From the IMG/VR virus record IMGVR_UViG_648276652_000012: a stretch of 21,453 nt of DNA, one strand, 5' to 3'. This DNA comes from a virus. Lineage: Duplodnaviria > Heunggongvirae > Uroviricota > Caudoviricetes. Shown here one piece after another: positions 1,282 through 19,253 of the stretch. Position 1 is the stretch's first letter; each line of letters opens with the position of its first letter. The notes under the pieces are model-generated. The model searched no databases, was not told where the DNA came from, and worked only from the letters and a program-made list of their open reading frames with translations. Both the position numbers and the translations under genes were made by a program.

Positions 1282-2211
1282 TCACGGCAGCCGGGGAATT
1301 TTTTTTCTGGTTATCGTAGGTGCTTCATCTGCTGCGGTAATGCTCAATTGAACCTGGATAATGTCGCTATTACCCCCATCAGGCCATTCACCTGACACCT
1401 GAACCTTCGGGAAACTGAAAGTGTATGCCCCCTCTCCATTCGAAAGCGTGAAGCTGAACGGAACTGTTTCTCCAGTCAGTGTTTTACTCCAGATTTCCCA
1501 CGCGGCTTTAGACCATGAAAGCGTCACCGTACCGGACGGTGTAAAAGTAGTCGGAATATTTGCTCCTGCATAAGGCGAGCCAGTCCCGATACAACGCTGT
1601 GTCTGGAGTTTGTTATCGAACTGAATATCAAAACTGTCGATACAAAAACCGTTACCTCCGGCAACACCATTCAGGCTTACTGCTGAAACCTCCTTAAACG
1701 AATAACGTAGCTTTCCTGCACTATCCACAGGTTCGCCTTTGATAAAATTCGTATCATCGGCCTTTGATTCCCAGTCCAGTCCGGCAAAGGTTACGGTCGC
1801 TGTAATATCGCCGTCGTTAGGGATCTGCATTTTCCATGAGCCAACCTGCGCTCCTCTGACGACAGAGGCAATTCCGACATCGGACGCATAGGTCGCCAGA
1901 GAAAATGTTATTCGCTCATTCCCCATTGTCAGAGAATCGCCTGACCATTCCGCGCCGAAACAGGATGCAAGAAAATCATCATGTTGACCCCAGCGAAATT
2001 TGGTACCAACATCACCGCCGACATCCACAGTGCCAGGCGTCGCCCCCTGAGCCATCCGGGAGCCACCAATCTCATTATTTTCGCCTTTATTCTGGGTGGG
2101 TTTTACTCCCCAGCTTGTGCGTTTTAATAAACTCCAGTCACCACTTGCTGGCGTAGTGCCTGCAACCGTCTCCCGGATAAATGCCGAGATAACCTTTGCA
2201 CCTGAACTCAC
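1282..2211 (-). CDS. major tail (tube) protein
   Basis: 309-aa ORF with GTG start preceded by AGGAGG (5-nt spacer). Sits between the tail-terminator-like gene and the G/GT pair; sequence is Gly/Thr/Ser-rich as expected for a beta-rich structural protein. Called by synteny. Confidence 0.6.
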   Translation of the reverse strand: MSSGAKVISAFIRETVAGTTPASGDWSLLKRTSWGVKPTQNKGENNEIGGSRMAQGATPGTVDVGGDVGTKFRWGQHDDFLASCFGAEWSGDSLTMGNERITFSLATYASDVGIASVVRGAQVGSWKMQIPNDGDITATVTFAGLDWESKADDTNFIKGEPVDSAGKLRYSFKEVSAVSLNGVAGGNGFCIDSFDIQFDNKLQTQRCIGTGSPYAGANIPTTFTPSGTVTLSWSKAAWEIWSKTLTGETVPFSFTLSNGEGAYTFSFPKVQVSGEWPDGGNSDIIQVQLSITAADEAPTITRKKIPRLP

Positions 2212-2237
2212 AGGAGCCTCCTATGTCATTAATTGCG

Positions 2238-2630
2238 CTAGAGCGCGCGATATGGAATTTGAAGATTAAGCTGGAACCAGCCATTCTTTTCGCCAACGGC
2301 TATTGAGGAAACAGCCTGGTAACTGAGACGATCGTCATCCTGAAACTCAAACAGTTCCCGCAATTTATCGGCTGTCTCAGTAATGAGTTTTGAACCAGAA
2401 CCTGCGGGGACAAATAACTGAATAATGATTATCCCCGTGCGATAAACAATCGGCCCCGCGCCAATTTCATTAACTCCAGCCTGCCCGGGAATATTACTTA
2501 ACCGCGCCCAGATTAACTTACCGGAAGGATCGAACGTTGGCGCGTTCGGATACAATACGTCTTTTCCATCAATAATCGTCTGTGCCGTCATTCTGGAAAT
2601 AACCGTATTTCTGATTTCAGTAAACGTCAT
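2238..2630 (-). CDS. tail terminator / tail completion protein (by position)
   Basis: 130-aa ORF; ATG at 2630-2628 overlaps the upstream stop in an ATGA arrangement; fourth of four small head-tail joining genes. Confidence 0.5.
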   Translation of the reverse strand: MTFTEIRNTVISRMTAQTIIDGKDVLYPNAPTFDPSGKLIWARLSNIPGQAGVNEIGAGPIVYRTGIIIIQLFVPAGSGSKLITETADKLRELFEFQDDDRLSYQAVSSIAVGEKNGWFQLNLQIPYRAL

Positions 2631-3007
2631 TTGTAAGCCTGTAAAACACCATGAAAAGCGTTGGCATACACGCCAGTTGGCGCTTGTTGTGAATGACCGT
2701 TTTCAAGAGCCTCTGCATAAGGAAGGTTATTCTGGATATAAATAACTCCGTAATTTGCAGCTTTCGAAATAACCCCGATCCCACGCTGAACAGCAATCGT
2801 ACCGTTCGGATCCACGTTATCAGATATACCAAAATCGGGATGCTGTAACGACACCAGGTTGTTATTTCTGAAACGTCCGGTATCAACCGGAGCAGCAATA
2901 TCAATAGCAGTAAGAATCTGAATAGCGATGTAGCGAATCTTCAGCCCTACATCTTCCTCAATCATCCCGGCAAATATTGACGGTTCTATATCCCATGCCT
3001 TTGCCAT
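2627..3007 (-). CDS. head-tail joining component (HK97 gp10-like size and position)
   Basis: 126-aa ORF, translationally coupled to its neighbours; placed by synteny. Confidence 0.5.
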   Translation of the reverse strand: MAKAWDIEPSIFAGMIEEDVGLKIRYIAIQILTAIDIAAPVDTGRFRNNNLVSLQHPDFGISDNVDPNGTIAVQRGIGVISKAANYGVIYIQNNLPYAEALENGHSQQAPTGVYANAFHGVLQAYK

Positions 3008-3391
3008 TTACGCTCTCCTTAACTGGATAGAGTAAACTGATGCGGAAGGATCTACACTTGCTGTAATTACCTCGTATCGTTGTAACTGCCTTGATACAGG
3101 ATCATAAATCTCAATAATATGGTCGACAGCTGGTTTATCCGTAACCTCGCATACCAGAGCGGTTAATTTAAGGTCACCATGCAAAATATTAATCCCATCA
3201 ATTCTGCCCAGCTTATAACGTGTCAACACGCCTCGCCCGGTATAGATTGCGGTGGATTCGCCGCCAGTTTCCGTCACAGGATCCCAGTGCCGGTGCGTAA
3301 CGTAAGAACCAGAAAAATCACTCACGGCGTCCGCTAAATCCTCATCAAAAGCAGCGGCAACCTCTGACTGAATCTCTTCACGAAGCCCCAT
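3008..3391 (-). CDS. head closure / head-tail joining protein (by position)
   Basis: 127-aa ORF; its ATG at 3391-3389 overlaps the upstream TAA (TAATG). Confidence 0.5.
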   Translation of the reverse strand: MGLREEIQSEVAAAFDEDLADAVSDFSGSYVTHRHWDPVTETGGESTAIYTGRGVLTRYKLGRIDGINILHGDLKLTALVCEVTDKPAVDHIIEIYDPVSRQLQRYEVITASVDPSASVYSIQLRRA

Positions 3392-8619: not shown

Positions 8620-9921
8620 TTAAATCCGAAGTGATGTGACTCTTCCGGTCGGTTTGACAATAGGGAATTGCTTAACGATGAAATAACCTCCGGCATCATT
8701 CGGGTGATCATTGCCAGATTTTTTATCAGGCTCCCCCTTATCATCCCAGACCTGTTGCTCCAGAGATTCGGCATATACCGGACAACGCTTCACATTAACT
8801 TTATAGCGACGCTCACCATTGGCATTGCAGAACATTGCATTCATTGAGTTAACGCGATCTTTTACTGGCGGGTTCGAGCTGTTCACCACAACGTTAAAAC
8901 CTGCCTGCTTAAGCTGGGCTATATCCGTCGTACTTGCGTTACTTGATTTTCTGGAATCTCCGGAAGCATCTGGATAAATATAAATCTCCCTCACTTTCCG
9001 GTAATCATGCCCGTCATACAGCCAGAAGCGTTCTTTAATGAGGCGGATCATATCCGGCGTATCGTAGGCATTGATGATTTCAGTTACCGCACATGGAAGC
9101 CCCAAACGCAGCACATGGACGATTCCCGCCATCTTTCCAACGTTAAAATCCATCCCAATATAAATCGGCTCCCCTGGCTGCTCCACTTCTTCGCAATTAT
9201 TCAGTTTCCGGTCAAACTGATGGTAAACAGTACCACTTGTCAGGTTAGTAAACCGTCCTAGAAGATAGGCTTTAATCAGCTCTGGAGGGTATGATTCAAG
9301 AAGTGAAGGAATGTAATCTGCTGGCAGGTTCTTTTCATTATCGAAAGTAGATGCCTGCACCAGACCATACAGTGAGGCCAGCTCTGTTTTTTCACGCACG
9401 GCTTTAACAAACTGCTCGTAGACAAATTTGAATCCTTCCGGCGTGGTTGTAACGTCAATACCGTTGCGAAGTCCATCAATCTTATAACGCATACGCGCAA
9501 TTATCTTGCGCCACGCCGTTCTGGCTTTTTCCTTCGGCAAAATGTCCAGTTCATCCACCAGCGCATTACCAATTTTGAAACCGACGATCGTTTGTGGCTT
9601 CTCCATCGATCTGCAGATAGTGGTTCCCCGATACTGGCGTCCGTAATAAAAGTGAACCTCTTTATTTCCCTCATTAATTTTTACGTTCAATCCCCAGTCA
9701 GCAGCAACTTCTTCCACTGTAGGGTAAAAAATATCGCGAATTTGGGGATACGTTGGCGCAAAATATCCCTGATTTATACCTGGATGCTCCCAAATCCCCT
9801 TGCATATGCCGCCACACCCAACCCATGTTTTGCCCGAGCCAAAACCAGCAATATAGGCTTTAAATTTATGGGGCATTGAAAGAAATCGCGCCTGAGGCAC
9901 ATTAAGCGTCGGAGAGATCAT
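8620..9921 (-). CDS. terminase large subunit
   Basis: Walker A motif AGFGSGKT near the N-terminus and an acidic nuclease-like C-terminal half. Start set at the ATG at 9921 (AAGGAG 8 nt upstream); the ORF-track start at 9930 is GTG. Confidence 0.85.
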   Translation of the reverse strand: MISPTLNVPQARFLSMPHKFKAYIAGFGSGKTWVGCGGICKGIWEHPGINQGYFAPTYPQIRDIFYPTVEEVAADWGLNVKINEGNKEVHFYYGRQYRGTTICRSMEKPQTIVGFKIGNALVDELDILPKEKARTAWRKIIARMRYKIDGLRNGIDVTTTPEGFKFVYEQFVKAVREKTELASLYGLVQASTFDNEKNLPADYIPSLLESYPPELIKAYLLGRFTNLTSGTVYHQFDRKLNNCEEVEQPGEPIYIGMDFNVGKMAGIVHVLRLGLPCAVTEIINAYDTPDMIRLIKERFWLYDGHDYRKVREIYIYPDASGDSRKSSNASTTDIAQLKQAGFNVVVNSSNPPVKDRVNSMNAMFCNANGERRYKVNVKRCPVYAESLEQQVWDDKGEPDKKSGNDHPNDAGGYFIVKQFPIVKPTGRVTSLRI

Positions 9922-10996
9922 CTTCATCACTCCTTAATCTGGCATCAACCACATTAATATTGATCGCCACAGGCTGGGGATGTTCATTATCCTCCACCGT
10001 TTCGATCTCTTTGCGCAGCTTCTGGTTCTCTATTCTGCGCCGTTCAATTTCCAGTTCCTGTAGCCGCTTATCTGCACATAATGCCCCGCCAGCAGAAAGC
10101 AAACGCAACAATTCACGCCGGGCGGCAGCCTTATCCTCCAGCAGGATCTCAACACCGTATTTTCCGAGCTTTGACCCTGCATATAATTGCCGCGCATCCC
10201 CATCAAGCAGTGTGGTATCAGCCATATAAAGCTGTCCTGTTCCCTCACCGCAGCACTTCGGGCAATCAGGATTGGGTATGGCGTTATCAACAAAGCCGAG
10301 GCCTCCATATTCCGGCTCGGGTTTACCATCTCTGGAGGCCTGTGCCGCAGCCTTATCGAATTCTGCAATATCACGCCACTGGTAGAGATGATTCTCGCCC
10401 CAGCAATAACGGCAGTTAACACGGCGAAATTGTGCCAACTGATTGGGGTCGGCCTGGACAATGGCCATCAACTGGCTCACCAGTAAATCCAGGTCTGCGG
10501 TATAGCGTTTCTGGTACTGATTGCGGAAGTAGCTGATAGCACGATAAACCCTGGCATTTCTAAGCATACGGCTGGCGTTGCTGTTAGCTGTCGCACCTTG
10601 CCCCTCATAACCAGCCAGTCGGTATGCCTCTGTCGGCTTTTTCCCCTGAGCAACCAACATGGCGAATTTTGCCTGCTGGTCAGAAATACCGAATTCATCG
10701 GGGCAGAACGAAATTTCTTCCGTGTCCCCCTCAATCAGGAGTGCATCGGATACAGCCTTTTTTTTCTGAGATTTTCCGTTCTGCCTTTGCGCAGTCTGCG
10801 CAGTTTTTTTTCGCGCACTTTTTTGCGCAGTTTTGCGCATTTCTTTCTGCGCATTTTTCGGAGTTTTTTTGATGTAACGACGGGCTGTTGCGTAGTTCAG
10901 TCCCCTTGCTTCACACCATGCCACCGGAGATATACCGGAGCGGGTGTATTCAGCAATATACTCCTGCTGCAACGCCCCCCAGTCCGGTCTGCTCAT
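9902..10996 (-). CDS. terminase small subunit-like DNA-binding protein with an atypical extended architecture
   Basis: 364-aa ORF directly upstream of the large terminase gene. N-terminal helix-turn-helix-like segment, a Lys/Gln/Ala-rich low-complexity stretch, CRYC...CPKCC cysteine pairs, and a C-terminal coiled-coil with an acidic tail. Confidence 0.55.
   Translation of the reverse strand: MSRPDWGALQQEYIAEYTRSGISPVAWCEARGLNYATARRYIKKTPKNAQKEMRKTAQKSARKKTAQTAQRQNGKSQKKKAVSDALLIEGDTEEISFCPDEFGISDQQAKFAMLVAQGKKPTEAYRLAGYEGQGATANSNASRMLRNARVYRAISYFRNQYQKRYTADLDLLVSQLMAIVQADPNQLAQFRRVNCRYCWGENHLYQWRDIAEFDKAAAQASRDGKPEPEYGGLGFVDNAIPNPDCPKCCGEGTGQLYMADTTLLDGDARQLYAGSKLGKYGVEILLEDKAAARRELLRLLSAGGALCADKRLQELEIERRRIENQKLRKEIETVEDNEHPQPVAININVVDARLRSDEDDLSDA
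10755..10870. repeat. periodic T-tract plus (T/C)GCGCA repeat array inside the small terminase gene
   Basis: Six copies of tgcgca/cgcgca at 10788, 10797, 10812, 10824, 10834 and 10848, each preceded by a T4-T8 tract; spacing 9-15 bp. Confidence 0.6.
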
Positions 10997-10999
10997 CAG

Positions 11000-11251
11000 T
11001 TAGTCCTGATTTTTATCCACCCTGAGTAGTTCGCGCAGAGCAAAGGCATCCCCTTTTCTGGCAAGCTTAAACAATGCCGCTCGTAACTCGGCTTCACCTT
11101 TCGCTCTGCCCTTACGGATGGCCGCATAAAAATCTGTCATTGCTTCCCGATTTTCTTTCAGTCGGTTCAGATCAACATCCAGAACGTCAGCGATTTGTTG
11201 TGCAGTCATCCGGCACGCTGCCAGAGACTCGACTTTCGAATACGGAATCAT
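11000..11251 (-). CDS. small hypothetical protein with a possible helix-turn-helix
   Basis: 83-aa ORF ending 3 nt before the small terminase start; ATG at 11251 has GGGGGTG upstream. Overlaps the 3' end of the upstream gene by 65 nt, so the start is uncertain. Confidence 0.4.
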   Translation of the reverse strand: MIPYSKVESLAACRMTAQQIADVLDVDLNRLKENREAMTDFYAAIRKGRAKGEAELRAALFKLARKGDAFALRELLRVDKNQD

Positions 11252-12119
11252 TTGTCACCCCCATTGATATGCAGGGTGTCTTCTTCCTGTATTTTTCGTG
11301 AAGGATTTTTACTGCAGCGTTGTTCCAGGTGACCTGATGGTGAATGCGTTTATGGCTGGCACCCATCAGTGAGATTTTTACGCACGACGGCGAATACATG
11401 ACGGAGTAAAAACTTTTAACGTAGGTTCCGGAATCCAGATACAGCTCGGTCATTCCGCCGCTGTTTTTCTGCGTCTGTTTCTGCCCTAACTGGACAGCAC
11501 CGATCGTCATAAACAATTCACCACAGCGACCGAGATTCGTGTACGTATTCACATCCTCGTTAATGCGCCCCATGAATGAGAACGGTCGATCAACCGAACA
11601 GATAAAGCTGTTCATTGCCTTGCGTTTCACCCACGAAGCATGGCCGCCATTGTCACCAAGAAAATCCCCGCCCTGCGACATAGCGATGGAAAGCGCGGGT
11701 ATTGATTCGTAATACGCCAGCATTTCAGAAAGGATCGCATCCAGTTTCCTTATCGGGAAATAGGCCTGGTCATAGTTGCGATCCACCCGAAACTGGAACT
11801 CGTGATAATCATCATCGAGCTGAATGAAGTATTTACACCCGACCAGTTTTGCCAGGTCGAAACAGGCATTACGGGCGTAAAAAATTGAGCGGCGATCACC
11901 AAAATTATCGGCTTCGTCAAAACGACTGGCAATATCGGCTTTGGAAAATACCAGCACCTGTTCACCAAATTCAGCCATGTACTGATGCCGTGTCTTATCT
12001 TCATCATCAACAACGATAAAAATTTTCCCGGTATAGCCAGCACGACGCAACGTCCGGTAAGTCAGAACTTTGTCCGGTCGCCCGTGAGTCAGAATAAAGG
12101 CGCAAAAATCATCACGCAT
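11187..12119 (-). CDS. GT-A-like putative nucleotide-sugar transferase (glycosyltransferase motifs)
   Basis: N-terminal FILTHGRPDKV...KIFIVVDDED resembles the GT2-type sugar-nucleotide binding signature; a downstream QLDDDYHEF resembles a DXD motif. No predicted transmembrane stretch. Start set at the ATG at 12119, preceded by GGAGGAGGAGGAGG. Motif-based call, not verified. Confidence 0.5.
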   Translation of the reverse strand: MRDDFCAFILTHGRPDKVLTYRTLRRAGYTGKIFIVVDDEDKTRHQYMAEFGEQVLVFSKADIASRFDEADNFGDRRSIFYARNACFDLAKLVGCKYFIQLDDDYHEFQFRVDRNYDQAYFPIRKLDAILSEMLAYYESIPALSIAMSQGGDFLGDNGGHASWVKRKAMNSFICSVDRPFSFMGRINEDVNTYTNLGRCGELFMTIGAVQLGQKQTQKNSGGMTELYLDSGTYVKSFYSVMYSPSCVKISLMGASHKRIHHQVTWNNAAVKILHEKYRKKTPCISMGVTNDSVFESRVSGSVPDDCTTNR

Positions 12120-12906
12120 ATTCCTCCTCCTCCTCCCCGCCATGCATGATCTCCACCATGCGCTGCGTCATTCGGACAAATCCATTTTCAATAGCCTGCT
12201 GATAATCAATGATCACCAGCGCCGACTCCTCGAAAAGGCACTGAATTTCAGCGGGGGCATGAGCGTAATAGTCCGCAATTCTGCTGAAATTAAACACTGT
12301 GTGACGTTCTGCCGCACACAGGAGGAATTTCTCAATATCAGGATCAAGGGACGCCGAACGTATCCGGCTGATCAGCTCCTGAGTTTTCGTATCGTCGTAC
12401 AGTTCACTGATATCCGGTTTACCGCCCGACGGCTCATAAACAGGCGTATCAATTTTCGTCGTATACGGCTCCTCCTCATTTCCTGTACCGGGCAAAACAT
12501 CCGTCAACAGTTCATCAATTTCTGTCGGGATGAAGCCTGTCAGGGAGACATCAAAATCAGCATTGATTAGGTCCGACAGCTCCATCCGCAACAGATCTTC
12601 ATCCCAGCCAGCATTCATCGGCAGGCGATTATCTGCCAGGCGGTACGCCTTTTTCTGCTCATCCGTCAGGCCAGACAGAACAATGACCGGAACAGAATCC
12701 ATTTTGAGCATTTCAGCCGCCATAACACGACCGTGACCCGCAATAATTTCGCCCTTTTCGTCAATCAGCACCGGATTAGTCCAGCCGAATTGCTTAATAC
12801 TTTCTACCAGTTGTGCCACCTGCTCAGGGCTGTGCGTCCTGGCGTTGTGCGCATACGGTGACAATTCTTGTAATGGGCGATAGACTATCTTTAATTTCTC
12901 GCTCAT
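12112..12906 (-). CDS. ParB-like nuclease domain (ParB/Srx N-terminal domain) protein
   Basis: N-terminal region PLQELSPYAHNARTHSPEQVAQLVESIKQFGWTNPVLIDEKGEIIAGHGRVMAA fits the ParB/sulfiredoxin-fold pattern; acidic C-terminus (GGEEEEEYA). Confidence 0.7.
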   Translation of the reverse strand: MSEKLKIVYRPLQELSPYAHNARTHSPEQVAQLVESIKQFGWTNPVLIDEKGEIIAGHGRVMAAEMLKMDSVPVIVLSGLTDEQKKAYRLADNRLPMNAGWDEDLLRMELSDLINADFDVSLTGFIPTEIDELLTDVLPGTGNEEEPYTTKIDTPVYEPSGGKPDISELYDDTKTQELISRIRSASLDPDIEKFLLCAAERHTVFNFSRIADYYAHAPAEIQCLFEESALVIIDYQQAIENGFVRMTQRMVEIMHGGEEEEEYA

Positions 12907-12920
12907 ACAGCCTTGCTTTA

Positions 12921-12958
12921 TGAATAAAACGCACCCCAGCAGCCAGTGCTACTGGGGA
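12921..12958 (-). terminator. rho-independent terminator downstream of trkG
   Basis: Minus strand reads ccccagtagcactggctgctgggg (imperfect roughly 10-bp stem) followed by tgcgttttattcat. Confidence 0.55.
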
Positions 12959-13043
12959 CGGAGGGGTTGCTGGTAAAGTTAGGTATTGGATCAATGAGTG
13001 AGTCAACATAATATTAAACTCACAATTATAAATCAGCCATATA

Positions 13044-14501
13044 TTAGGAGCGCCAAAAAAAACCTGAAAACAATATAATAACAGGATAAATTTCAAGGCG
13101 ACCAAGAATCATAGCTATGCACATTAAACATTTTGCAATGTCATTAAGCACTCCGAATGACGATGCAGTAGCCCCAAAACCTAATCCCATATTATTAATA
13201 CATGCAGCCACTGTTGCAAATGATGTAAGAAAATCATATCCCATACCATTTAACACCAGTATAAAAAACACCGTGAAGAGAGTATAAAGAAAAAAGAAAC
13301 TCCATACAGACCTCATTACACGATCTGTAACTATCTTCCCTCCTACATTTACACTCAACAACGCTCTGGGATGAGAAAGCTGATTTATCTCGTGTTTGCT
13401 TTGTTTGAAAAGTATAAGAAATCGAAGTGACTTAATTCCACCACAAGTTGAACCTATACATCCCCCAAAGAAACTTGACAACAGCAAAAACACTATCGTG
13501 TGCGTGGGCCAACTTGCATAATCCTGCGTAGCTAAACCATTATCAGTGAGCATGGAGCTGGCAAGAAAAAACGAATGAATAAAACTTCCATGCAAGTCAT
13601 ACATACCTATATGCCAGACCTGGAAAGAGGTAACAATGATCACCCCTAAGGCTATTAACAGAAAGAAACGAAGTTCAATATCTCTGATTAAAGGTTTTAT
13701 CGTTTTCCTGCTAATAACAATATACCAAAGAGTGAAGTTGAAAGCCGATAGCAGGGAAAAAGAACCAGCCACCAGCTCAACCAAATAGTTATTAAAATAT
13801 CCGATACTCTCGCTATGAGTTGAGAAACCACCAAGCGAAACTGTGGAAATCCCGTGACAAATAGCATCAAACAAAGGCATTCCTGCAAGTCTATAACAGA
13901 CAATACAAGCAATACCTAATAAAGAATAAGTTATCCACAGTGTCCGTGACGTATCGGCCAGGCGGGGAGTGAGTTTGTCATCCTTAAATGGCCCCGGCAT
14001 TTCTGACTGATAAAGCTTTGCACCACCAATACCCAATAATGGCAATACAGCAACCGCCAGAACAATAACTCCTAAACCACCTATAAAATTTAACTGTGAC
14101 CGATAGTACAAATATGCCCGAGGTAATGAACTAACATCATCAATTACAGTTGCTCCTGTTGTTGTTATTCCAGAAACCCCTTCAAACAGAGCATCAATGA
14201 ACGTTAAATTAAGTTCTGAGTCAATCCATAAAGGGAATGCACTAATAACAGAAAACAAAATCCAAAACATTACAATTATAATAAACCCATCACGGGTACG
14301 TAATTGAATGCCAGATTTCTTAGTTGTATACCACGCTCCGCCACCAATGCAAAAAAATATAACGAAAGTTATAAAGAAAACGAACAGGCTTTTTTCTTTA
14401 TAAAACAATGCTACAACCATTGGTGGCAACATTGAAAGACTATAGAGCCAAACCAGGAACCCACACATATGAGTAACAACTCTTACATGAGATGTATTCA
14501 T
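13044..14501 (-). CDS. trkG: Trk-system potassium uptake protein TrkG (TrkH/KtrB family)
   Basis: 485-aa polytopic membrane protein starting MNTSHVRVVTHMCGFLVWLYSL..., recognised from memory as E. coli TrkG. Markedly AT-rich compared with flanking phage genes. Start trimmed from the TTG at 14519 to the ATG at 14501. Confidence 0.9.
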   Translation of the reverse strand: MNTSHVRVVTHMCGFLVWLYSLSMLPPMVVALFYKEKSLFVFFITFVIFFCIGGGAWYTTKKSGIQLRTRDGFIIIVMFWILFSVISAFPLWIDSELNLTFIDALFEGVSGITTTGATVIDDVSSLPRAYLYYRSQLNFIGGLGVIVLAVAVLPLLGIGGAKLYQSEMPGPFKDDKLTPRLADTSRTLWITYSLLGIACIVCYRLAGMPLFDAICHGISTVSLGGFSTHSESIGYFNNYLVELVAGSFSLLSAFNFTLWYIVISRKTIKPLIRDIELRFFLLIALGVIIVTSFQVWHIGMYDLHGSFIHSFFLASSMLTDNGLATQDYASWPTHTIVFLLLSSFFGGCIGSTCGGIKSLRFLILFKQSKHEINQLSHPRALLSVNVGGKIVTDRVMRSVWSFFFLYTLFTVFFILVLNGMGYDFLTSFATVAACINNMGLGFGATASSFGVLNDIAKCLMCIAMILGRLEIYPVIILFSGFFWRS

Positions 14502-14638
14502 ATCTAAATATTCTTTCAATTATAACCACCTTGCTGCAATATTATGATTATACTGTATAAAATTTAACTCCTCTTAGATCTTACTTCACTGTTCCTTATG
14601 AAACAATCATCAAAATGAATCATATTGTAGTTAAGATT

Positions 14639-15812: not shown

Positions 15813-15930
15813 AGCAACGCCTCCGCAAGTAACGGATTGCGTAGTTCTTATATTGGGAAGGGGAAAAAAGAAGGCCGCAGCGTAACTATCACTGATGAAT
15901 TCAGGACAGCCAGTGGCTCCGGCTCAGTTA

Positions 15931-16006
15931 TGGTGCTGGTTAACGGACTTGAACCGCTACCCATTCGCTTACAAGGCGACTGCTCTACCATTGGAGCTAA
16001 ACCAGC
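15931..16006 (-). tRNA. tRNA, anticodon UGU by manual fold (tRNA-Thr)
   Basis: Minus-strand 76-nt sequence GCTGGTT-TA-GCTC-CAATGGTA-GAGC-A-GTCGC-CTTGTAA-GCGAA-TGGGT-AGCGG-TTCAAGT-CCGTT-AACCAGC-A-CCA. Perfect 7-bp acceptor and 4-bp D stems, T8/A9, GG in the D-loop, TTCAAGT T-loop, encoded CCA. Anticodon assignment rests on hand folding. Confidence 0.7.
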
Positions 16007-16011
16007 ATATT

Positions 16012-16086
16012 TGGCGGGACAGCGTGGACTCGAACCACGATAAGAAGGTTAACAGCCTTCCGTAATGACCTTTATGCGACTGACCC
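16012..16086 (-). other. degenerate tRNA-like element (possible pseudo-tRNA or unusual tRNA, anticodon GUU if folded)
   Basis: Good T-arm (CGTGG-TTCGAGT-CCACG), perfect anticodon stem (GAAGG/CCTTC, loop CTGTTAA), 3' CCA; but a T-T mismatch in the acceptor stem and a poor D stem. Confidence 0.3.
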
Positions 16087-16087
16087 A

Positions 16088-16125
16088 AACAAAAAAAGCC
16101 ACCGTTGCAACTTAAGAGTCACTAA
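16088..16125 (-). terminator. putative tR'-like terminator downstream of the late promoter
   Basis: Minus strand reads gccgtt...gttgcaacggtggc followed by ttttttt gtttggg; the stem is imperfect but the 7-T run is clear. Confidence 0.4.
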
Positions 16126-16142
16126 CGGCAGCTTACCTTCTA

Positions 16143-16172
16143 ATTATGGCTAAATGGATAATTGCATGTCAA
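16143..16172 (-). promoter_or_regulatory. candidate late promoter pR' (sigma-70; consensus -35, 18-nt spacer, near-consensus -10) overlapping the Q 3' end
   Basis: Minus strand: TTGACA (plus 16167-16172) - 18 nt - CATAAT (plus 16143-16148). The Q stop codon lies between them; the T-run terminator follows about 45 nt downstream. Confidence 0.6.
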
Positions 16173-16668
16173 GGCTTTTAACAGCAACATGCTTAACTTT
16201 CTCAACACGTTTACGCATTTTGAAAGCATTTTGCATTGGCTGGTACAAAACAAATAACGACGCTTTCAGGATGTCGTCAATTTCGTTTCTACAGGTTGCC
16301 AGTGAAGGTTTTCTCCATCCCTCGCCACCACGTCCACACATCTTGCGTGGCTTTGCAGTCGCGTGATAGTAGGATGCAATTGCTCGCTTAGATGAACCAT
16401 GAGCGTAGTAGCTGAGGAGGATGCCAAAGGCTTTTTTGTCAATGCACATGACGGAATCGACGACCTGAGAAATCAACATTCCATCATCATCATTACACAT
16501 TGGCCTTGTCATAACTCTTCCCGGCTCTACGCTCTCCATGAACTTAGCTATTACGCTGCTCATGCGCTTTTCCAGACGACCTGAATAAACCCATGCGCCC
16601 CACAGTTCAAGCCAGCCATTCAGCCACTCGTGCTGTTCTTTGGTGAGGTTTAGTTCTCTTATGCCCAT
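16150..16668 (-). CDS. Q: late antiterminator Q (phage 21/82-type)
   Basis: Motifs ELWGAW, CNDDDGM and LLSYYAHG recalled from Q-family proteins; sits between ninG and the lysis genes. Start set at the ATG at 16668 (GGGAGAAGG upstream) rather than the GTG at 16725, which overlaps ninG. Confidence 0.8.
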   Translation of the reverse strand: MGIRELNLTKEQHEWLNGWLELWGAWVYSGRLEKRMSSVIAKFMESVEPGRVMTRPMCNDDDGMLISQVVDSVMCIDKKAFGILLSYYAHGSSKRAIASYYHATAKPRKMCGRGGEGWRKPSLATCRNEIDDILKASLFVLYQPMQNAFKMRKRVEKVKHVAVKSLDMQLSI

Positions 16669-16711
16669 GCGCCTTCTCCCTTGTGATCTGGAATGGTTTT
16701 TACTGAGAACG

Positions 16712-17323
16712 TCATGCGGCCTCACTTCTGCTGTTTCGCAGGTCTTTGAGTTTCTGCTGATACTCCGCCTTGATGGCCCTGCACTCTTCGACAGTCCAGC
16801 GATGGCGGTTATGGTTTGATTCGATTTCGTCTACTGCTTCCTGCCCGATGCGGCTAATCAGTTCGACGCGATACGGAACGAGATTTCCGCTTTTGTGCTG
16901 GTTGCACACCACGCATTGCTTGTGAATATTGCGTTCATCAAATCGGAGTTGAGGTGCCGCAGCAGTTGTCCGGTAATGTCCGGCATCCCACTGAGCAGAC
17001 GTGAGCGTTCCGCACGAGATACATGGTAAGTCGCGGTCTCTTTCTCTGATGAAGGCGTTTACGGCTTGTTGGGCTTGTTTAATCCAGTAACTGCGGGGCT
17101 TTAAGGCGAGTTTTCGAATCTTAAGTTTATCTTTCTGTTTCTGCTCCTCTCGTCGTCGTTTCTTCTCTGCTGCTTTTTCCGCTTTTTCGCGTTCTTTACT
17201 TCGTCGTTCGAGTGCTATCTTGGTTCCACACTCTGGAGAGCACCACCACTGATTAGCGAATGCAGGATGAAACCATTCCCGACATTCTTCGTTTTTACAT
17301 CGTCTTCGCGCTTGTTTAGCCAT
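16712..17323 (-). CDS. ninG: NinG (Rap) recombination-associated protein
   Basis: 203 aa, [33 protein letters not shown]..., recognised from memory as nearly identical to lambda NinG. Confidence 0.9.
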
Positions 17324-18119: not shown

Positions 18120-18292
18120 TTCCTCGCACGATGTCTTAGCCACCGGATATCCCACAGGTGAGCCGTGTAGTTGAAGGTTTTTACGTCAGATTCTTTTGGG
18201 ATTGGCTTGCGTTTATTTCTGGAGCGTTTCGTTGGAAGGTATTTGCAGTTTTCGCAGATGATGTCGGTGAAACTTCGTCGCTGTCGCCTCAT
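18116..18292 (-). CDS. ninE: NinE
   Basis: 58 aa, [58 protein letters not shown]; recognised from memory as lambda NinE-like. ATG overlaps the methylase stop (ATGA). Confidence 0.85.
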
Positions 18293-18816
18293 GCCGCCCT
18301 CCTGACGCCCTGCCCGATCGCTATCAATGCCGCTTTGGATACGGTAGTAAACATCCGTCGAGGACTGATGAACGGTCGCCAAATCAGCAGCATGGAGCCT
18401 TTGCTGTTTCCCTTCTTCTCCAGCCCCGTCGATGGTTCGATAAAATTAATCCGTCCATCAGTGATAATGCGAACTTCGTCGACACTCTCCAGAGCCTTGC
18501 TGAACCATCCGACTGACATATCCTCTGGCACAAGCATCACTACCGTCTGTCGCTGTTGTATGCACTGCTCAGCGGCTTTTTCCACCCACGGCCTGATATT
18601 GCTGTACGGTGGGTTATTCCAGATTGCACCGTGGCTTACCCACTCAGAATTGAGCGCGTCGTCGGCCTCAGTTAGCCAGTGAGCACACAGAGCATTTTTG
18701 TCGCTCGCTGCCGAATCCAGCCAGAATCCAAACTCAATATCCAGTGCATCAAAAAGCCAAAGCGGCGTTTGCCAGCAGTCCTTGTCGTGTGCTGGCGTAT
18801 TTGATTTGATAGTCAT
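18289..18816 (-). CDS. phage-type DNA N6-adenine methyltransferase (Dam-like)
   Basis: 175 aa with DKDCWQTP near the N-terminus and the NPPY catalytic motif; ATG at 18816 overlaps the ninB stop (ATGA). Occupies the slot where lambda has ninC/ninD. Confidence 0.8.
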
Positions 18817-19253
18817 GCAGCCCGATCTCCCCATCTCGCTTTCCACTCCAGAGCCAGTCTCGCTTCGTCTGACCACTTAACGCCACGCTCTGTACCGAAT
18901 GCCTGTATAAGCTCTAATAGCTCCGCAAATTCGCCTACACGCATCCTGCTGGTTGACTGGCCTATTACCACAAAGCCATTCCCGGCAAGGTTAGGAACAA
19001 CATCCTGCTGCTTTAATGCTGCGGTAAACACACACTTCCAGCTTTCTGCATCCAGCCAGCGACCATGCCATTCAACCTGACGAGAGACGTCACCTAAGCA
19101 GGCCCATAGCTTCCTGTTTTGGTCTAAGCTGCGGTTGCGTTCCTGAATGGTTACTACGATTGGTTTGGTTGGGTCTGGAAGGATTTGCTGTACTGCGTGA
19201 ATAGCGTTTTGCTGATGTGCTGGAGATCGAATTTCAAAGGTTAGTTTTTTCAT
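18813..19253 (-). CDS. ninB: NinB (Orf) recombination protein
   Basis: 146 aa, MKKLTFEIRSPAHQQNAIHAVQQILPDPTKPIVVTIQERNRSLDQNRKLWACLGDVSRQVEWHGRW...; recognised from memory as lambda NinB. Confidence 0.9.
   Translation of the reverse strand: MKKLTFEIRSPAHQQNAIHAVQQILPDPTKPIVVTIQERNRSLDQNRKLWACLGDVSRQVEWHGRWLDAESWKCVFTAALKQQDVVPNLAGNGFVVIGQSTSRMRVGEFAELLELIQAFGTERGVKWSDEARLALEWKARWGDRAA

Follow-up and report, generated by a model that had tools for sequence, protein, structure and literature searches.

The DNA analyzed here, a stretch of 21,453 nucleotides referred to below as the window, is from a Rac-like E. coli prophage. Three minus-strand open reading frames had originally been predicted between 11000 and 12906, and their positions were confirmed from the list of open reading frames. 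The features of the locus are as follows.

12112..12906, minus strand: ParB-like gene (full-length YnaK), 264 aa; based on Pfam, PHROG, fold, conservation, and dN/dS.
11187..12119, minus strand: TAGT-family glycosyltransferase (GT) gene, 310 aa; based on PF20691, GT-A fold, conservation, and dN/dS.
12112..12141, minus strand: translational-coupling junction of the ParB and GT genes; based on sequence, with overlapping stop and start codons also in relatives.
11000..11251, minus strand: small ORF, relative of a TerS segment, 83 aa; based on PHROG 309.
9902..10996, minus strand: TerS, context gene, 364 aa; based on Terminase_2 and PHROG 51.
8620..9930, minus strand: TerL, context gene; based on Terminase_6N and Terminase_6C.
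12934..14519, minus strand: trkG moron with terminator hairpin; based on ORF 13044..14519, GC content, hairpin, and annotation.

The longest mechanically derived reading frame of the GT gene starts at 12143. We set the start at 12119, the position at which the family alignment begins (MRDDF) and which RefSeq entry WP_001204033.1 (933 nt) also uses. The two genes then overlap by 8 nt, from the ATG of the GT gene (12119..12117) to the TGA stop codon of the ParB gene (12114..12112). Upstream of this ATG lies a GGAGG-rich run that encodes the EEEEE tail of the ParB-like protein and acts as a Shine-Dalgarno-like sequence for the GT gene. The overlap of stop and start codons recurs in relatives, in agreement with the tight coupling claimed for the two genes. 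The 3' end of the GT gene in turn overlaps the small ORF, which is shorter in RefSeq (11000..11209, 69 aa) than in our list (83 aa). In comparisons with E. coli and enterobacterial variants, dN/dS was 0.06-0.14 (ParB-like, ~0.07-0.14; GT, ~0.06-0.10), showing that both are real genes under purifying selection.

The GT had been regarded as not belonging to any recognized named system. It turned out to be a member of Pfam PF20691 (TAGT, "TET-associated glycosyltransferase"), matching residues 16-230 with E = 6e-35 and 121.5 bits against a cut-off of 27.5; the same domain is carried by all of its close homologues. PHROG 842, labeled beta-glucosyl-HMC-alpha-glucosyltransferase, was matched with E = 1.5e-103. 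The RefSeq name "GREB1-related protein" reflects a shared assignment, since GREB1, like the base-J glucosyltransferase (JGT), is placed in this GT-A family. GREB1 glycosylates a protein (PMC7968844), an observation that speaks against DNA as acceptor. The motifs ILTHGRPDKV, IFIVVDDED, and QLDDDYHEF were all found in the GT. An AlphaFold2 model (pLDDT 77.6) matched GnT-I, SpsA, GalNAc-Ts, and glycogenin in the PDB, all of them GT-A enzymes with prob 1.00. SunS was a further match, and the nucleoside glycosyltransferase AvpGT (9jn3) was among the top GT-A matches; the matches are generic for GT-A (TM ~0.3-0.45), that to AvpGT being no better than the others. A PDB sequence search with the TAGT profile gave nothing meaningful, matches being obtained by the fold search only. 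The DXD motif, D102-D103-D104, was invariant in 41 sequences and in 11 divergent ones, and ~55 further residues were invariant in the TAGT alignments. Residues 1-285 make up the conserved core, and residues 286-310 form a lineage-specific, low-confidence tail. The maximum 19-residue Kyte-Doolittle hydropathy was 1.08 for the GT and 1.25 for the ParB-like protein; therefore, neither contains membrane segments. The fold matches, the invariant DDD, and the lack of membrane segments bear out the prediction that the transferase is soluble, of GT-A type, and equipped with a conserved DXD.

TAGT is a large family, with 1499 clusters at 50% identity at E ≤ 1e-3 and 714 at E ≤ 1e-30. Identity between the E. 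coli protein and its homologues from viruses of archaea, Gram-positive bacteria, and actinobacteria is 41-48%, a level that speaks for a universal acceptor. Long homologues are fused to a SAM methyltransferase, a carbohydrate-type sulfotransferase, a P-loop domain, or a second TAGT, and these tailoring fusions point to a persistent decorated glycan. A Rosetta-stone search revealed no ParB-TAGT fusion among the best 150 representatives. Solitary phage TAGTs have already been mentioned in print, with undefined function (PMC13216743). That the GT is a remnant of K-12 YdaY was considered and rejected, ydaY being flanked by the tape-measure and tail-tube genes.

The ParB-like gene is full-length ynaK. 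Its product matched PF02195 (ParB_N) with E = 1.2e-6 and 28.9 bits against a cut-off of 26.3, and PHROG 620 with E = 1.5e-90. Models of ParB-methyltransferase fusions matched its N-terminal 140 residues (PHROG 498, E = 1e-50; PADLOC MTase_II, E = 2.5e-38). In Foldseek searches, the modeled N-domain matched Noc, ParB, KorB, PadC, and sulfiredoxin, and free serine kinase was also among the fold matches. The ParB/Srx fold proposed for the 264-aa protein was thus recovered, with residues ~1-135 predicted by the model to form a ParB/Srx nucleotide-binding fold; for both proteins of the pair, profile and structure-prediction searches yielded the folds expected. In 46 non-redundant partners, Gly57 of the GxxR motif was conserved in 100% and Arg60 in 94%; some partners, e.g. 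that of NTR1, lack the arginine of GxGR. The nucleotide-binding fold is followed by an acidic linker, predicted to be disordered, with a near-invariant Y148...P155-x-Y157...P164 motif, in which Tyr157 was invariant and Tyr148 was conserved in 98% of the 46 partners. The C-terminal domain is helical, with Arg201, His202, Tyr214, Glu226, and Asp234 conserved, and precedes the EEEEE tail. The protein has a pI of 4.46 and a net charge of about -26. Very low pI values (4.1-4.8) are common to the partners, which is unusual for a DNA-binding protein and, by itself, speaks against a DNA acceptor. A canonical ParB of a ParABS system was not supported, in view of this net charge and of four negative results: the TIGR00180 score of 38.5 was below the cut-off of 58.45, no HTH family was matched in Pfam, no ParA was found in the window, and 10800-13150 contained only short chance-level parS-like repeats with no prominent palindrome.

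Two surveys of TAGT neighborhoods, totaling ~165 loci, established how regularly the two genes occur together. A ParB gene was located directly upstream of TAGT in ~85 of 86 assessable loci in survey 1 and adjoined it in 75 of 80 in survey 2, where the other five were second copies of tandem TAGT duplicates. The pairing was kept at 27% identity in a Porphyromonas phage and was also seen in Halovirus HHTV-2, Lactobacillus phi jlb1 and c5, and Nocardia NTR1. Virulent phages carry the pair too. In 191-kb Vibrio phages, TAGT lies among primase, exonuclease, and helicase genes without an adjacent ParB gene. A mirror-tree comparison of ParB and TAGT identities gave a Pearson coefficient of 0.57 and a Spearman coefficient of 0.31, a moderate correlation only that we do not count as evidence.

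The order ParB-TAGT upstream of terminase was found in viruses of Proteobacteria, Firmicutes, Actinobacteria, Bacteroidota, and haloarchaea. TerL followed within 3.5 kb downstream in 66 of 74 and 41 of 51 assessable loci, and three different, unrelated TerL families accompany the pair. The gene order in cos-type relatives is HNH-cos-[ParB-TAGT]-TerS-TerL; in NTR1 and some metagenomic loci, TerL comes directly after TAGT without a TerS ORF in between. Among complete E. coli genomes, 867 of 5426, or ~1 in 6, covered at least 80% of the locus. TerS is co-inherited with the pair in this species: 841 of the 967 genomes matching a probe for the TerS/GT junction covered at least 80% of it contiguously. 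The small ORF, originally described as the third gene of a set, matched positions 145-218 of 319 in the TerS-related PHROG 309 (E = 8e-23). Its homologue of 83-85 aa occurred between TAGT and TerS only in enterobacterial loci; therefore, it belongs to the packaging block and not to the pair.

The pair had also been interpreted as accessory cargo of the slot between lysis and packaging genes. This interpretation holds for trkG, which is real cargo between the lysis genes and the ParB gene, but not for the pair, which travels with the terminase genes across phyla. The 491-aa ORF annotated as trkG (13044..14519) has a GC content of 0.35-0.41 compared with ~0.48 in its flanks, whereas that of the pair (0.48-0.50) is like the flanks. 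A terminator hairpin of trkG at 12957..12934 consists of a 10-bp stem with seven GC pairs and is followed by a T run. The pair is located downstream of this terminator within the late operon, and no promoter-like site was seen on the minus strand upstream of the ParB gene. In PADLOC-DB 2.0, the GT and the small ORF had no match, and the ParB-like protein matched only positions 13-151 of 436 of a type II methyltransferase model. With no PADLOC match for the GT, no promoter of its own, and occurrence in virulent phages, the pair does not have the appearance of the defense module considered earlier. Nor is it a conserved core packaging accessory. In LL-Ku and Ld25A, viable relatives of c5, deletions of 845 and 1199 nt, respectively, remove most of both genes and leave cos, TerS, and TerL in place. 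From these natural deletions, it follows that packaging and growth do not require the pair.

Transferases of this kind normally require a hydroxymethylated base, and a source of such bases was sought. Pfam detected no TET/JBP dioxygenase in the large ORFs of the window, and neither the window nor the Rac prophage annotation contained a 5mYOX/TET-JBP enzyme, a thymidylate-synthase-like hydroxymethylase, or another producer of hydroxylated bases. No TET/JBP or other 5-hydroxymethylpyrimidine source was present within ±8 kb in loci L002-L007, and no hydroxylated-base producer in the complete 31.8-kb genome of phage c5. Beside the ParB gene, the surveyed loci held no cognate 5-methylpyrimidine dioxygenase, the adjacent gene always being TAGT. 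Direct scans of the commonest neighbor clusters revealed no dioxygenase or other producer of a hydroxylated base; this neighbor survey for TET/JBP was indirect in that cluster representatives were used. When 134 neighbor ORFs were scanned against Pfam as one alignment, none of the matches listed (25 of 100 families) recurred in more than two clusters. No known DNA acceptor for TAGT is therefore available. As the searches turned up neither a 5hmC nor a 5hmU source, the sugar goes either to a DNA position that has yet to be described or to something other than DNA.

We propose, with a probability of roughly 0.45, that the pair is a late-expressed module of two proteins for the glycosylation of DNA, the ParB-like protein assisting the transferase. 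At that level, the DNA-directed modification suggested by the original prediction remains the leading reading, by virtue of TAGT family precedent, the enzyme features, the obligate ParB partner, and the linkage to terminase. TAGT would be a soluble metal-dependent GT-A enzyme moving a sugar from a nucleotide-sugar donor. Its obligatory partner would be the acidic ParB-like protein with its ParB/Srx N-domain, Tyr/Pro linker, and helical C-domain and no recognizable DNA-binding HTH. Like ParB176 with its cognate thymine dioxygenase, this partner may switch the transferase on or place it on double-stranded phage DNA. The pair shares its transcription with the terminase genes, so phage DNA would receive the mark after replication, immediately before packaging or while it proceeds; protection from host nucleases would be the most likely benefit. 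Iyer et al., in 2013, reportedly placed JGT, which glucosylates 5hmU in DNA, in the same family. The second glucosyltransferase of T2 and T6, also PF20691, acts on DNA (PMC13390438, PMC13216743). In a published case, a ParB-like protein that itself has no DNA-binding domain activates a phage dioxygenase acting on double-stranded DNA, and the commonest neighbors of phage 5mYOX dioxygenases are GTs, ParBs, and terminases (PMC13229309). In the literature, we found neither a functional study of the pair nor experimental data on the DNA of phages carrying it.

It is possible, though doubtful, that the pair glycosylates on its own, without any hydroxymethylpyrimidine precursor, and places the sugar directly on a canonical base or another position of DNA, or on the invariant tyrosines of its own ParB. 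The direct-DNA form would amount to an undescribed modification chemistry, carried out immediately before packaging in viruses of no fewer than five prokaryotic phyla. In the self-partner form, the ParB-like protein would resemble glycogenin, as a viral glycoprotein whose ParB domain is gated by a nucleotide.

Among the alternatives to DNA glycosylation, modification of a protein in the manner of glycogenin or GREB1 is unlikely, yet it has several observations on its side. TAGT would act on its own ParB partner, the best candidate, at the near-invariant Tyr148, Thr153, and Tyr157 in the linker YTTKIDTPVYEPS, or else on a packaging or virion protein. The ParB partner is the only protein that always accompanies TAGT, it is a poor DNA binder on charge alone, and the conserved tyrosines lie in the predicted disordered segment; GREB1, also a member of the family, attaches O-GlcNAc to a protein (PMC7968844), and the fold matches include glycogenin, GalNAc-Ts, and SunS. 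These matches are, however, generic GT-A ones, and the conserved linker motif could equally be a docking peptide. The terminase, portal, and capsid families vary between carriers; therefore, none of them is a conserved acceptor. The Vibrio phage TAGT, among replication genes and without an adjacent ParB, also does not fit. We consider it improbable that the target is a nucleotide, nucleoside, or signal, with the ParB/Srx domain binding a nucleotide and the GT glycosylating such a molecule and thereby disarming a host defense or altering a precursor pool. ParB-CTPase folds bind CTP, ATP, or GTP in varied contexts (PMC12704722), the ParB/Srx fold includes kinases such as the free serine kinase matched here, AvpGT is a nucleoside glycosyltransferase, and certain TAGTs carry a fused P-loop NTPase/kinase-like domain. 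Against this stand the generic quality of the AvpGT match, the lack of precedent in the TAGT family, the partners devoid of the GxGR arginine, and the position of the genes at the head of a late packaging operon, counter-defense genes usually being early.

A packaging helper that modifies nothing is similarly improbable. Here, ParB would be a nuclease, NTPase, or cos/pac-site factor and the GT-like protein a structural one, aiding terminase as HNH proteins do in cos phages. The constant position between HNH/cos and TerS/TerL and the loci in which TerL directly follows TAGT agree with such a role, and methylase-fused ParB domains can nick DNA (PMC5512222). It is contradicted by the viability of LL-Ku and Ld25A and by the association with three unrelated TerL families; moreover, the invariant DXD and ~55 other invariant residues argue for catalysis, and fusions to tailoring enzymes would be senseless for a structural protein. 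Very unlikely is a moron that benefits the lysogen through prophage defense or superinfection exclusion. The slot between lysis and terminase genes of lambdoid prophages does hold morons, namely trkG in the present prophage and, in a Yersinia relative, genes for LT-II-like toxins, but the pair is syntenic with terminase and not with the variable slot, shares the GC content of its flanks, lacks a promoter of its own downstream of the trkG terminator, and occurs in virulent phages and archaeal viruses; in PADLOC, the ParB match covers just the ParB part of a methyltransferase model. We give least credence to a relic of a TET/JBP-ParB-GT hypermodification cassette, inert without its dioxygenase. 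TET association gave the Pfam family its name, and ParB and GT genes are the commonest neighbors of phage 5mYOX genes (PMC13229309), but the low dN/dS of both genes, the 714 clusters at E ≤ 1e-30, and a two-gene arrangement without dioxygenase across five phyla are not those of a relic.

Phage DNA glycosylation has so far been understood as decoration of 5-hydroxymethyl- or 5-hydroxy-pyrimidines. The occurrence of TAGT plus ParB without a precursor enzyme in five phyla implies either an unrecognized acceptor or that ParB-fold proteins partner modifying enzymes beyond the single published dioxygenase case. With the module present in about one-sixth of complete E. coli genomes, this is directly testable in the best genetic system, and dairy Lactobacillus phages provide natural deletion variants of the pair. 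If the product is a DNA modification, it would be relevant to evasion of restriction and type IV defense and to sequencing artifacts in prophage-derived DNA, and it might offer a new enzymatic DNA-labeling tool.

Several known systems resemble the pair in part. The T2/T6 beta-glucosyl-HMC-alpha-glucosyltransferase and other phage TAGTs are, like the GT studied here, phage-encoded, soluble PF20691 proteins of GT-A fold with a DXD, and act after replication. The T-even-type enzymes are only ~25% identical to our GT (Aeromonas Ah1 match) and add a second sugar to glucosyl-5hmC, which derives from hydroxymethyl-dCTP and an alpha- or beta-GT. In contrast, no hmC pathway or alpha/beta-GT was found in this prophage, and its obligate ParB-like partner is absent from T-even phages. 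JGT and GREB1 belong by assignment to the same GT-A family but come from eukaryotes and are far larger; JGT requires JBP dioxygenases, and GREB1 targets a protein (PMC7968844). In phage ParB-DNA methyltransferase fusions, which are enriched in prophage regions (PMC12704722), the ParB module strongly matches the N-terminal 140 residues of the ParB-like protein. The pair differs from them in consisting of separate, translationally coupled polypeptides and in the transfer, as predicted, of a sugar and not a methyl group, and the ParB-like protein has its own conserved linker and C-domain. The HNH accessory of cos-phage terminases shares its neighborhood with ParB-TAGT. In HK97-like cos phages, HNH is required for cos cleavage, whereas the ParB-TAGT pair is deleted in viable relatives.

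The system 5mYOX176/ParB176 (O'Toole et al. 2026, PMC13229309) differs from the pair in its enzyme, a dioxygenase and not a glycosyltransferase, and no dioxygenase was found near our pair; GTs mostly accompany the ParB-independent dioxygenase clade (PMC13229309). In both cases, a ParB-like protein is encoded beside an enzyme that modifies DNA after replication (in our case, as proposed), and terminase and GT genes are frequent neighbors. ParB176 consists of an NBD and a CTD and has no recognizable DNA-binding domain; judged by description, and with a C-domain model of low confidence, the architecture of the ParB-like protein studied here is compatible with that of ParB176.

A Rac-type lambdoid E. 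coli prophage makes up the window. On its minus strand, the replication genes O/P, the Nin region (including a phage Dam methylase), Q, the lysis genes and trkG are followed by the ParB-like gene, the glycosyltransferase (GT) gene, a small ORF, TerS, TerL, portal, and head and tail genes. The three minus-strand ORFs of the original prediction were found where it had placed them, and the motifs it quoted are present in the sequence. The region is laid out as follows.

12934..14519, minus strand: low-GC trkG insert, flanked by the lysis genes and the ParB gene
12112..12906, minus strand: ParB-like gene, 264 aa
11187..12119, minus strand: GT gene, 310 aa
11000..11251, minus strand: small ORF, 83 aa (69 aa in the RefSeq version)

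The pair had been regarded as accessory cargo of the slot between lysis and packaging. Instead, trkG was identified as the true moron of this slot by its low GC content (0.35-0.41 vs. ~0.48 in the flanks) and its own terminator, a strong hairpin at 12957..12934 on the minus strand. In a Yersinia prophage (L006, 2180..3332), LT-II-like enterotoxin A/B genes occupy the equivalent slot. The Nin region encodes a phage-type Dam N6-adenine methyltransferase (18289..18876, minus strand; PF05869, E=2e-64), and the prophage thus already has one DNA-modifying enzyme. Three direct repeats of TTTTGCGCA (10821..10856, spacing 10 and 14 nt) lie within the 5' part of the TerS gene and encode an AQK-rich repeat.

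The longest mechanical ORF of the GT starts at 12143; the start at 12119 (MRDDF) is shared by all homologues in the alignment and is also the RefSeq start. The ParB stop and GT start codons overlap by 8 nt, preceded by a GGAGG-rich run. Comparison with variants 4-20% diverged gave dN/dS of 0.06-0.14, showing purifying selection on both genes. The pair-carrying locus is common in E. coli: it was present in 1619 of 5426 complete genomes, 867 of which cover at least 80% of it. ParB, TAGT, small ORF and TerS were contiguous in 841 of the 967 E. coli genomes matching a TerS/GT junction probe; this block is co-inherited. An enterotoxigenic (ETEC) prophage (L093) has a truncated TerS and no ParB-TAGT. 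Its gene after TerL (1833..3269), labelled "anti-CBASS protein Acb1 family", occupies the place of the window's portal-like DUF4055 protein, and the label may be questionable.

The ParB-like gene is ynaK in its full-length form. RefSeq/PGAP labels the intact 264-aa gene (12112..12906) as a 258-nt "ynaK pseudogene, missing C-terminus", as at 13750..14007 and 21750..22007 in two genomes 100% identical to the window (L001 and L175), leaving ~530 nt without annotation. This call is probably an artefact of using the truncated YnaK of K-12 as reference.

No named system had been recognised in the original prediction; the GT nevertheless falls in a named family, PF20691 "TET-associated glycosyltransferase" (TAGT), which it matches far over the cut-off. 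TAGT was reportedly defined by Iyer et al. in 2013. The GT also matches PHROG 842, and some RefSeq records name it "GREB1-related protein". The GT-A fold expected for it was recovered in an AlphaFold2 model (pLDDT 77.6), whose top PDB fold matches are GnT-I, SpsA, a mycobacterial GT, AvpGT, GalNAc-transferases and glycogenin. Homologues from archaeal, Gram-positive and actinobacterial viruses share 41-48% identity; in an alignment including them, the DDD motif (D102-D103-D104) and ~55 other residues are invariant. As had been noted, the GT has no membrane segments, and neither protein has a hydrophobic stretch of membrane-helix length. Its 25-residue C-terminal extension (286-310; 11187..11261) is lineage-specific, has pLDDT <50, overlaps the small ORF start and is missing from ~288-aa relatives.

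The ParB-like protein cleared the ParB_N (Pfam) cut-off, and the predicted model of its N-domain matched Noc, ParB, KorB, PadC and sulfiredoxin, in line with the proposed ParB/Srx fold. The first 140 residues are closest to the ParB module of phage DNA methyltransferase fusions (PHROG 498, E=1e-50; PADLOC MTase_II, E=2.5e-38). An acidic linker, predicted to be disordered, and a helical C-domain follow, with conservation at least that of the N-domain. Y157 and E226 never vary among 46 non-redundant partners, in which Y148, R201, H202, Y214 and D234 reach 96-98% conservation. These proteins are strongly acidic (pI 4.1-4.8), with a net charge of -15 to -27 in non-halophiles.

A ParB gene (~260 aa) whose stop codon overlaps the start of a following TAGT gene (~285 aa) was also seen in metagenomic phages that are unrelated, have HK97-type terminases and carry HNH upstream of the pair, and in a Yersinia prophage, Lactobacillus phages phi jlb1 and c5, Nocardia phage NTR1, haloarchaeal virus HHTV-2 and, at only 27% identity, a Porphyromonas phage. 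Co-occurrence was evident in both of two IMG/VR surveys. In the first (88 TAGT genes), all but one of the loci with sequence available on the upstream side had ParB immediately before TAGT, and in 66 of the 74 loci that could be assessed TerL followed no more than 3.5 kb downstream. In the second, seeded by the Lactobacillus protein (40-50% identity), ParB adjoined TAGT in 75/80, the remaining five being second copies of tandem duplicates, and TerL followed in 41/51. Tandem TAGT genes behind one ParB gene were seen in four loci (L102, L107, L108 and L112). Because at least three different large-subunit families adjoin the pair, it moves as a unit relative to the terminases while keeping its position. 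Vibrio phages (191 kb) carry TAGT without adjacent ParB, among primase, exonuclease and helicase genes. One metagenomic phage with the pair (L004) has two Glycos_transf_2 genes 3' of the capsid gene (15837..16894), which may serve a separate virion-glycosylation function.

An exhaustive profile search gave 1499 clusters (50% identity) at E<=1e-3, 714 of them at E<=1e-30. TAGT was fused to a class I SAM methyltransferase (locus L080, 10001..11719; proteins P0247 and P0254), a carbohydrate-type sulfotransferase (Sulfotransfer_2; P0287), an uncharacterised N-terminal P-loop domain (GxSCAGKS; P0267, P0291 and P0302) or a second TAGT (P0260 and P0273). The fused domains look like glycan-tailoring partners.

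A TET/JBP dioxygenase or other source of hydroxylated pyrimidine was found neither within the window nor in the annotation of a complete Rac prophage, nor by precomputed Pfam labels within 8 kb on either side in three divergent examples. None turned up either among the neighbour clusters that recur in the two surveys, an indirect test that rare cases could escape. The complete c5 genome (31.8 kb, 50 ORFs) has no dioxygenase or hydroxymethylase annotation, and none of its unassigned ORFs exceeds 208 aa. A radical-SAM gene directly follows TAGT in three metagenomic loci, including L105 and L106 (8843..9796; PF04055, E=8e-14), a possible alternative route to an acceptor.

The best-supported reading, at a probability of about 0.45, is a two-protein, late-expressed DNA-modification module, in which a catalytically competent GT-A transferase, assisted by its ParB-like partner, would act on replicated DNA before packaging. 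The enzyme adding the second glucose to glucosyl-hmC in T2/T6 is a PF20691 member (PMC13390438; PMC13216743), and solitary TAGT homologues of undefined function occur in 288 of 753 phage genomes (PMC13216743). The value is no higher because the acceptor is unexplained, the ParB-like partner is very acidic, and GREB1, of the same family, glycosylates a protein (PMC7968844). Protein glycosylation, most plausibly of the invariant tyrosines in the partner's linker, is a less probable alternative. ParB-CTPase folds can bind CTP, ATP or GTP (Kaljevic et al. 2025, PMC12704722); a function directed at a nucleotide or small molecule is unlikely.

The place beside the terminase genes would suit a non-catalytic packaging helper, which is likewise improbable, being weakened by the invariant DXD and by natural deletions. 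Phage c5 in circular form reads HNH, cos, ParB, TAGT, ORF3, ORF4, TerL (intact pair region, L176 90..1713). Relative to c5, the viable Lactobacillus delbrueckii phages LL-Ku and Ld25A, of its genus, lack ~194-1038 (845 nt) and 362-1560 (1199 nt), respectively, and thus most of both pair genes. The remnants are joined into single ORFs (L178, 90..938; L177, 90..515). Since cos and the terminase genes are kept and the phages are viable, the pair is dispensable for packaging and lytic growth; LL-Ku and Ld25A are ready-made natural controls for c5. Despite this dispensability, wide conservation and low dN/dS show that the pair is selected in nature. A defence moron is considered very unlikely, and an inert relic more improbable still.

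Literature searches turned up no work on the function of either the ParB-TAGT pair or full-length YnaK. The gene families are already named and annotated, and the association of ParB domains with DNA-modifying enzymes is published as a general idea. New, as far as found, are the obligate pairing of this TAGT clade with a distinct acidic ParB-like family, the position of the pair as the first genes of the packaging operon in viruses of archaea and bacteria alike, and the occurrence of the pair without any precursor-making enzyme. A subclass of phage thymine dioxygenases requires a ParB-like activator without DNA-binding domain (O'Toole et al. 2026, PMC13229309); the genes most often neighbouring those of phage dioxygenases encode GTs (31%), ParBs (27%) and terminases (19%) (PMC13229309), and DNA methyltransferases are frequent fusion partners of phage ParB-CTPase folds (Kaljevic et al. 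2025, PMC12704722). In the DNA-modification reading, the assisting role of the ParB-like protein would be analogous to that in the ParB-dioxygenase pair and the ParB-methyltransferase fusions.
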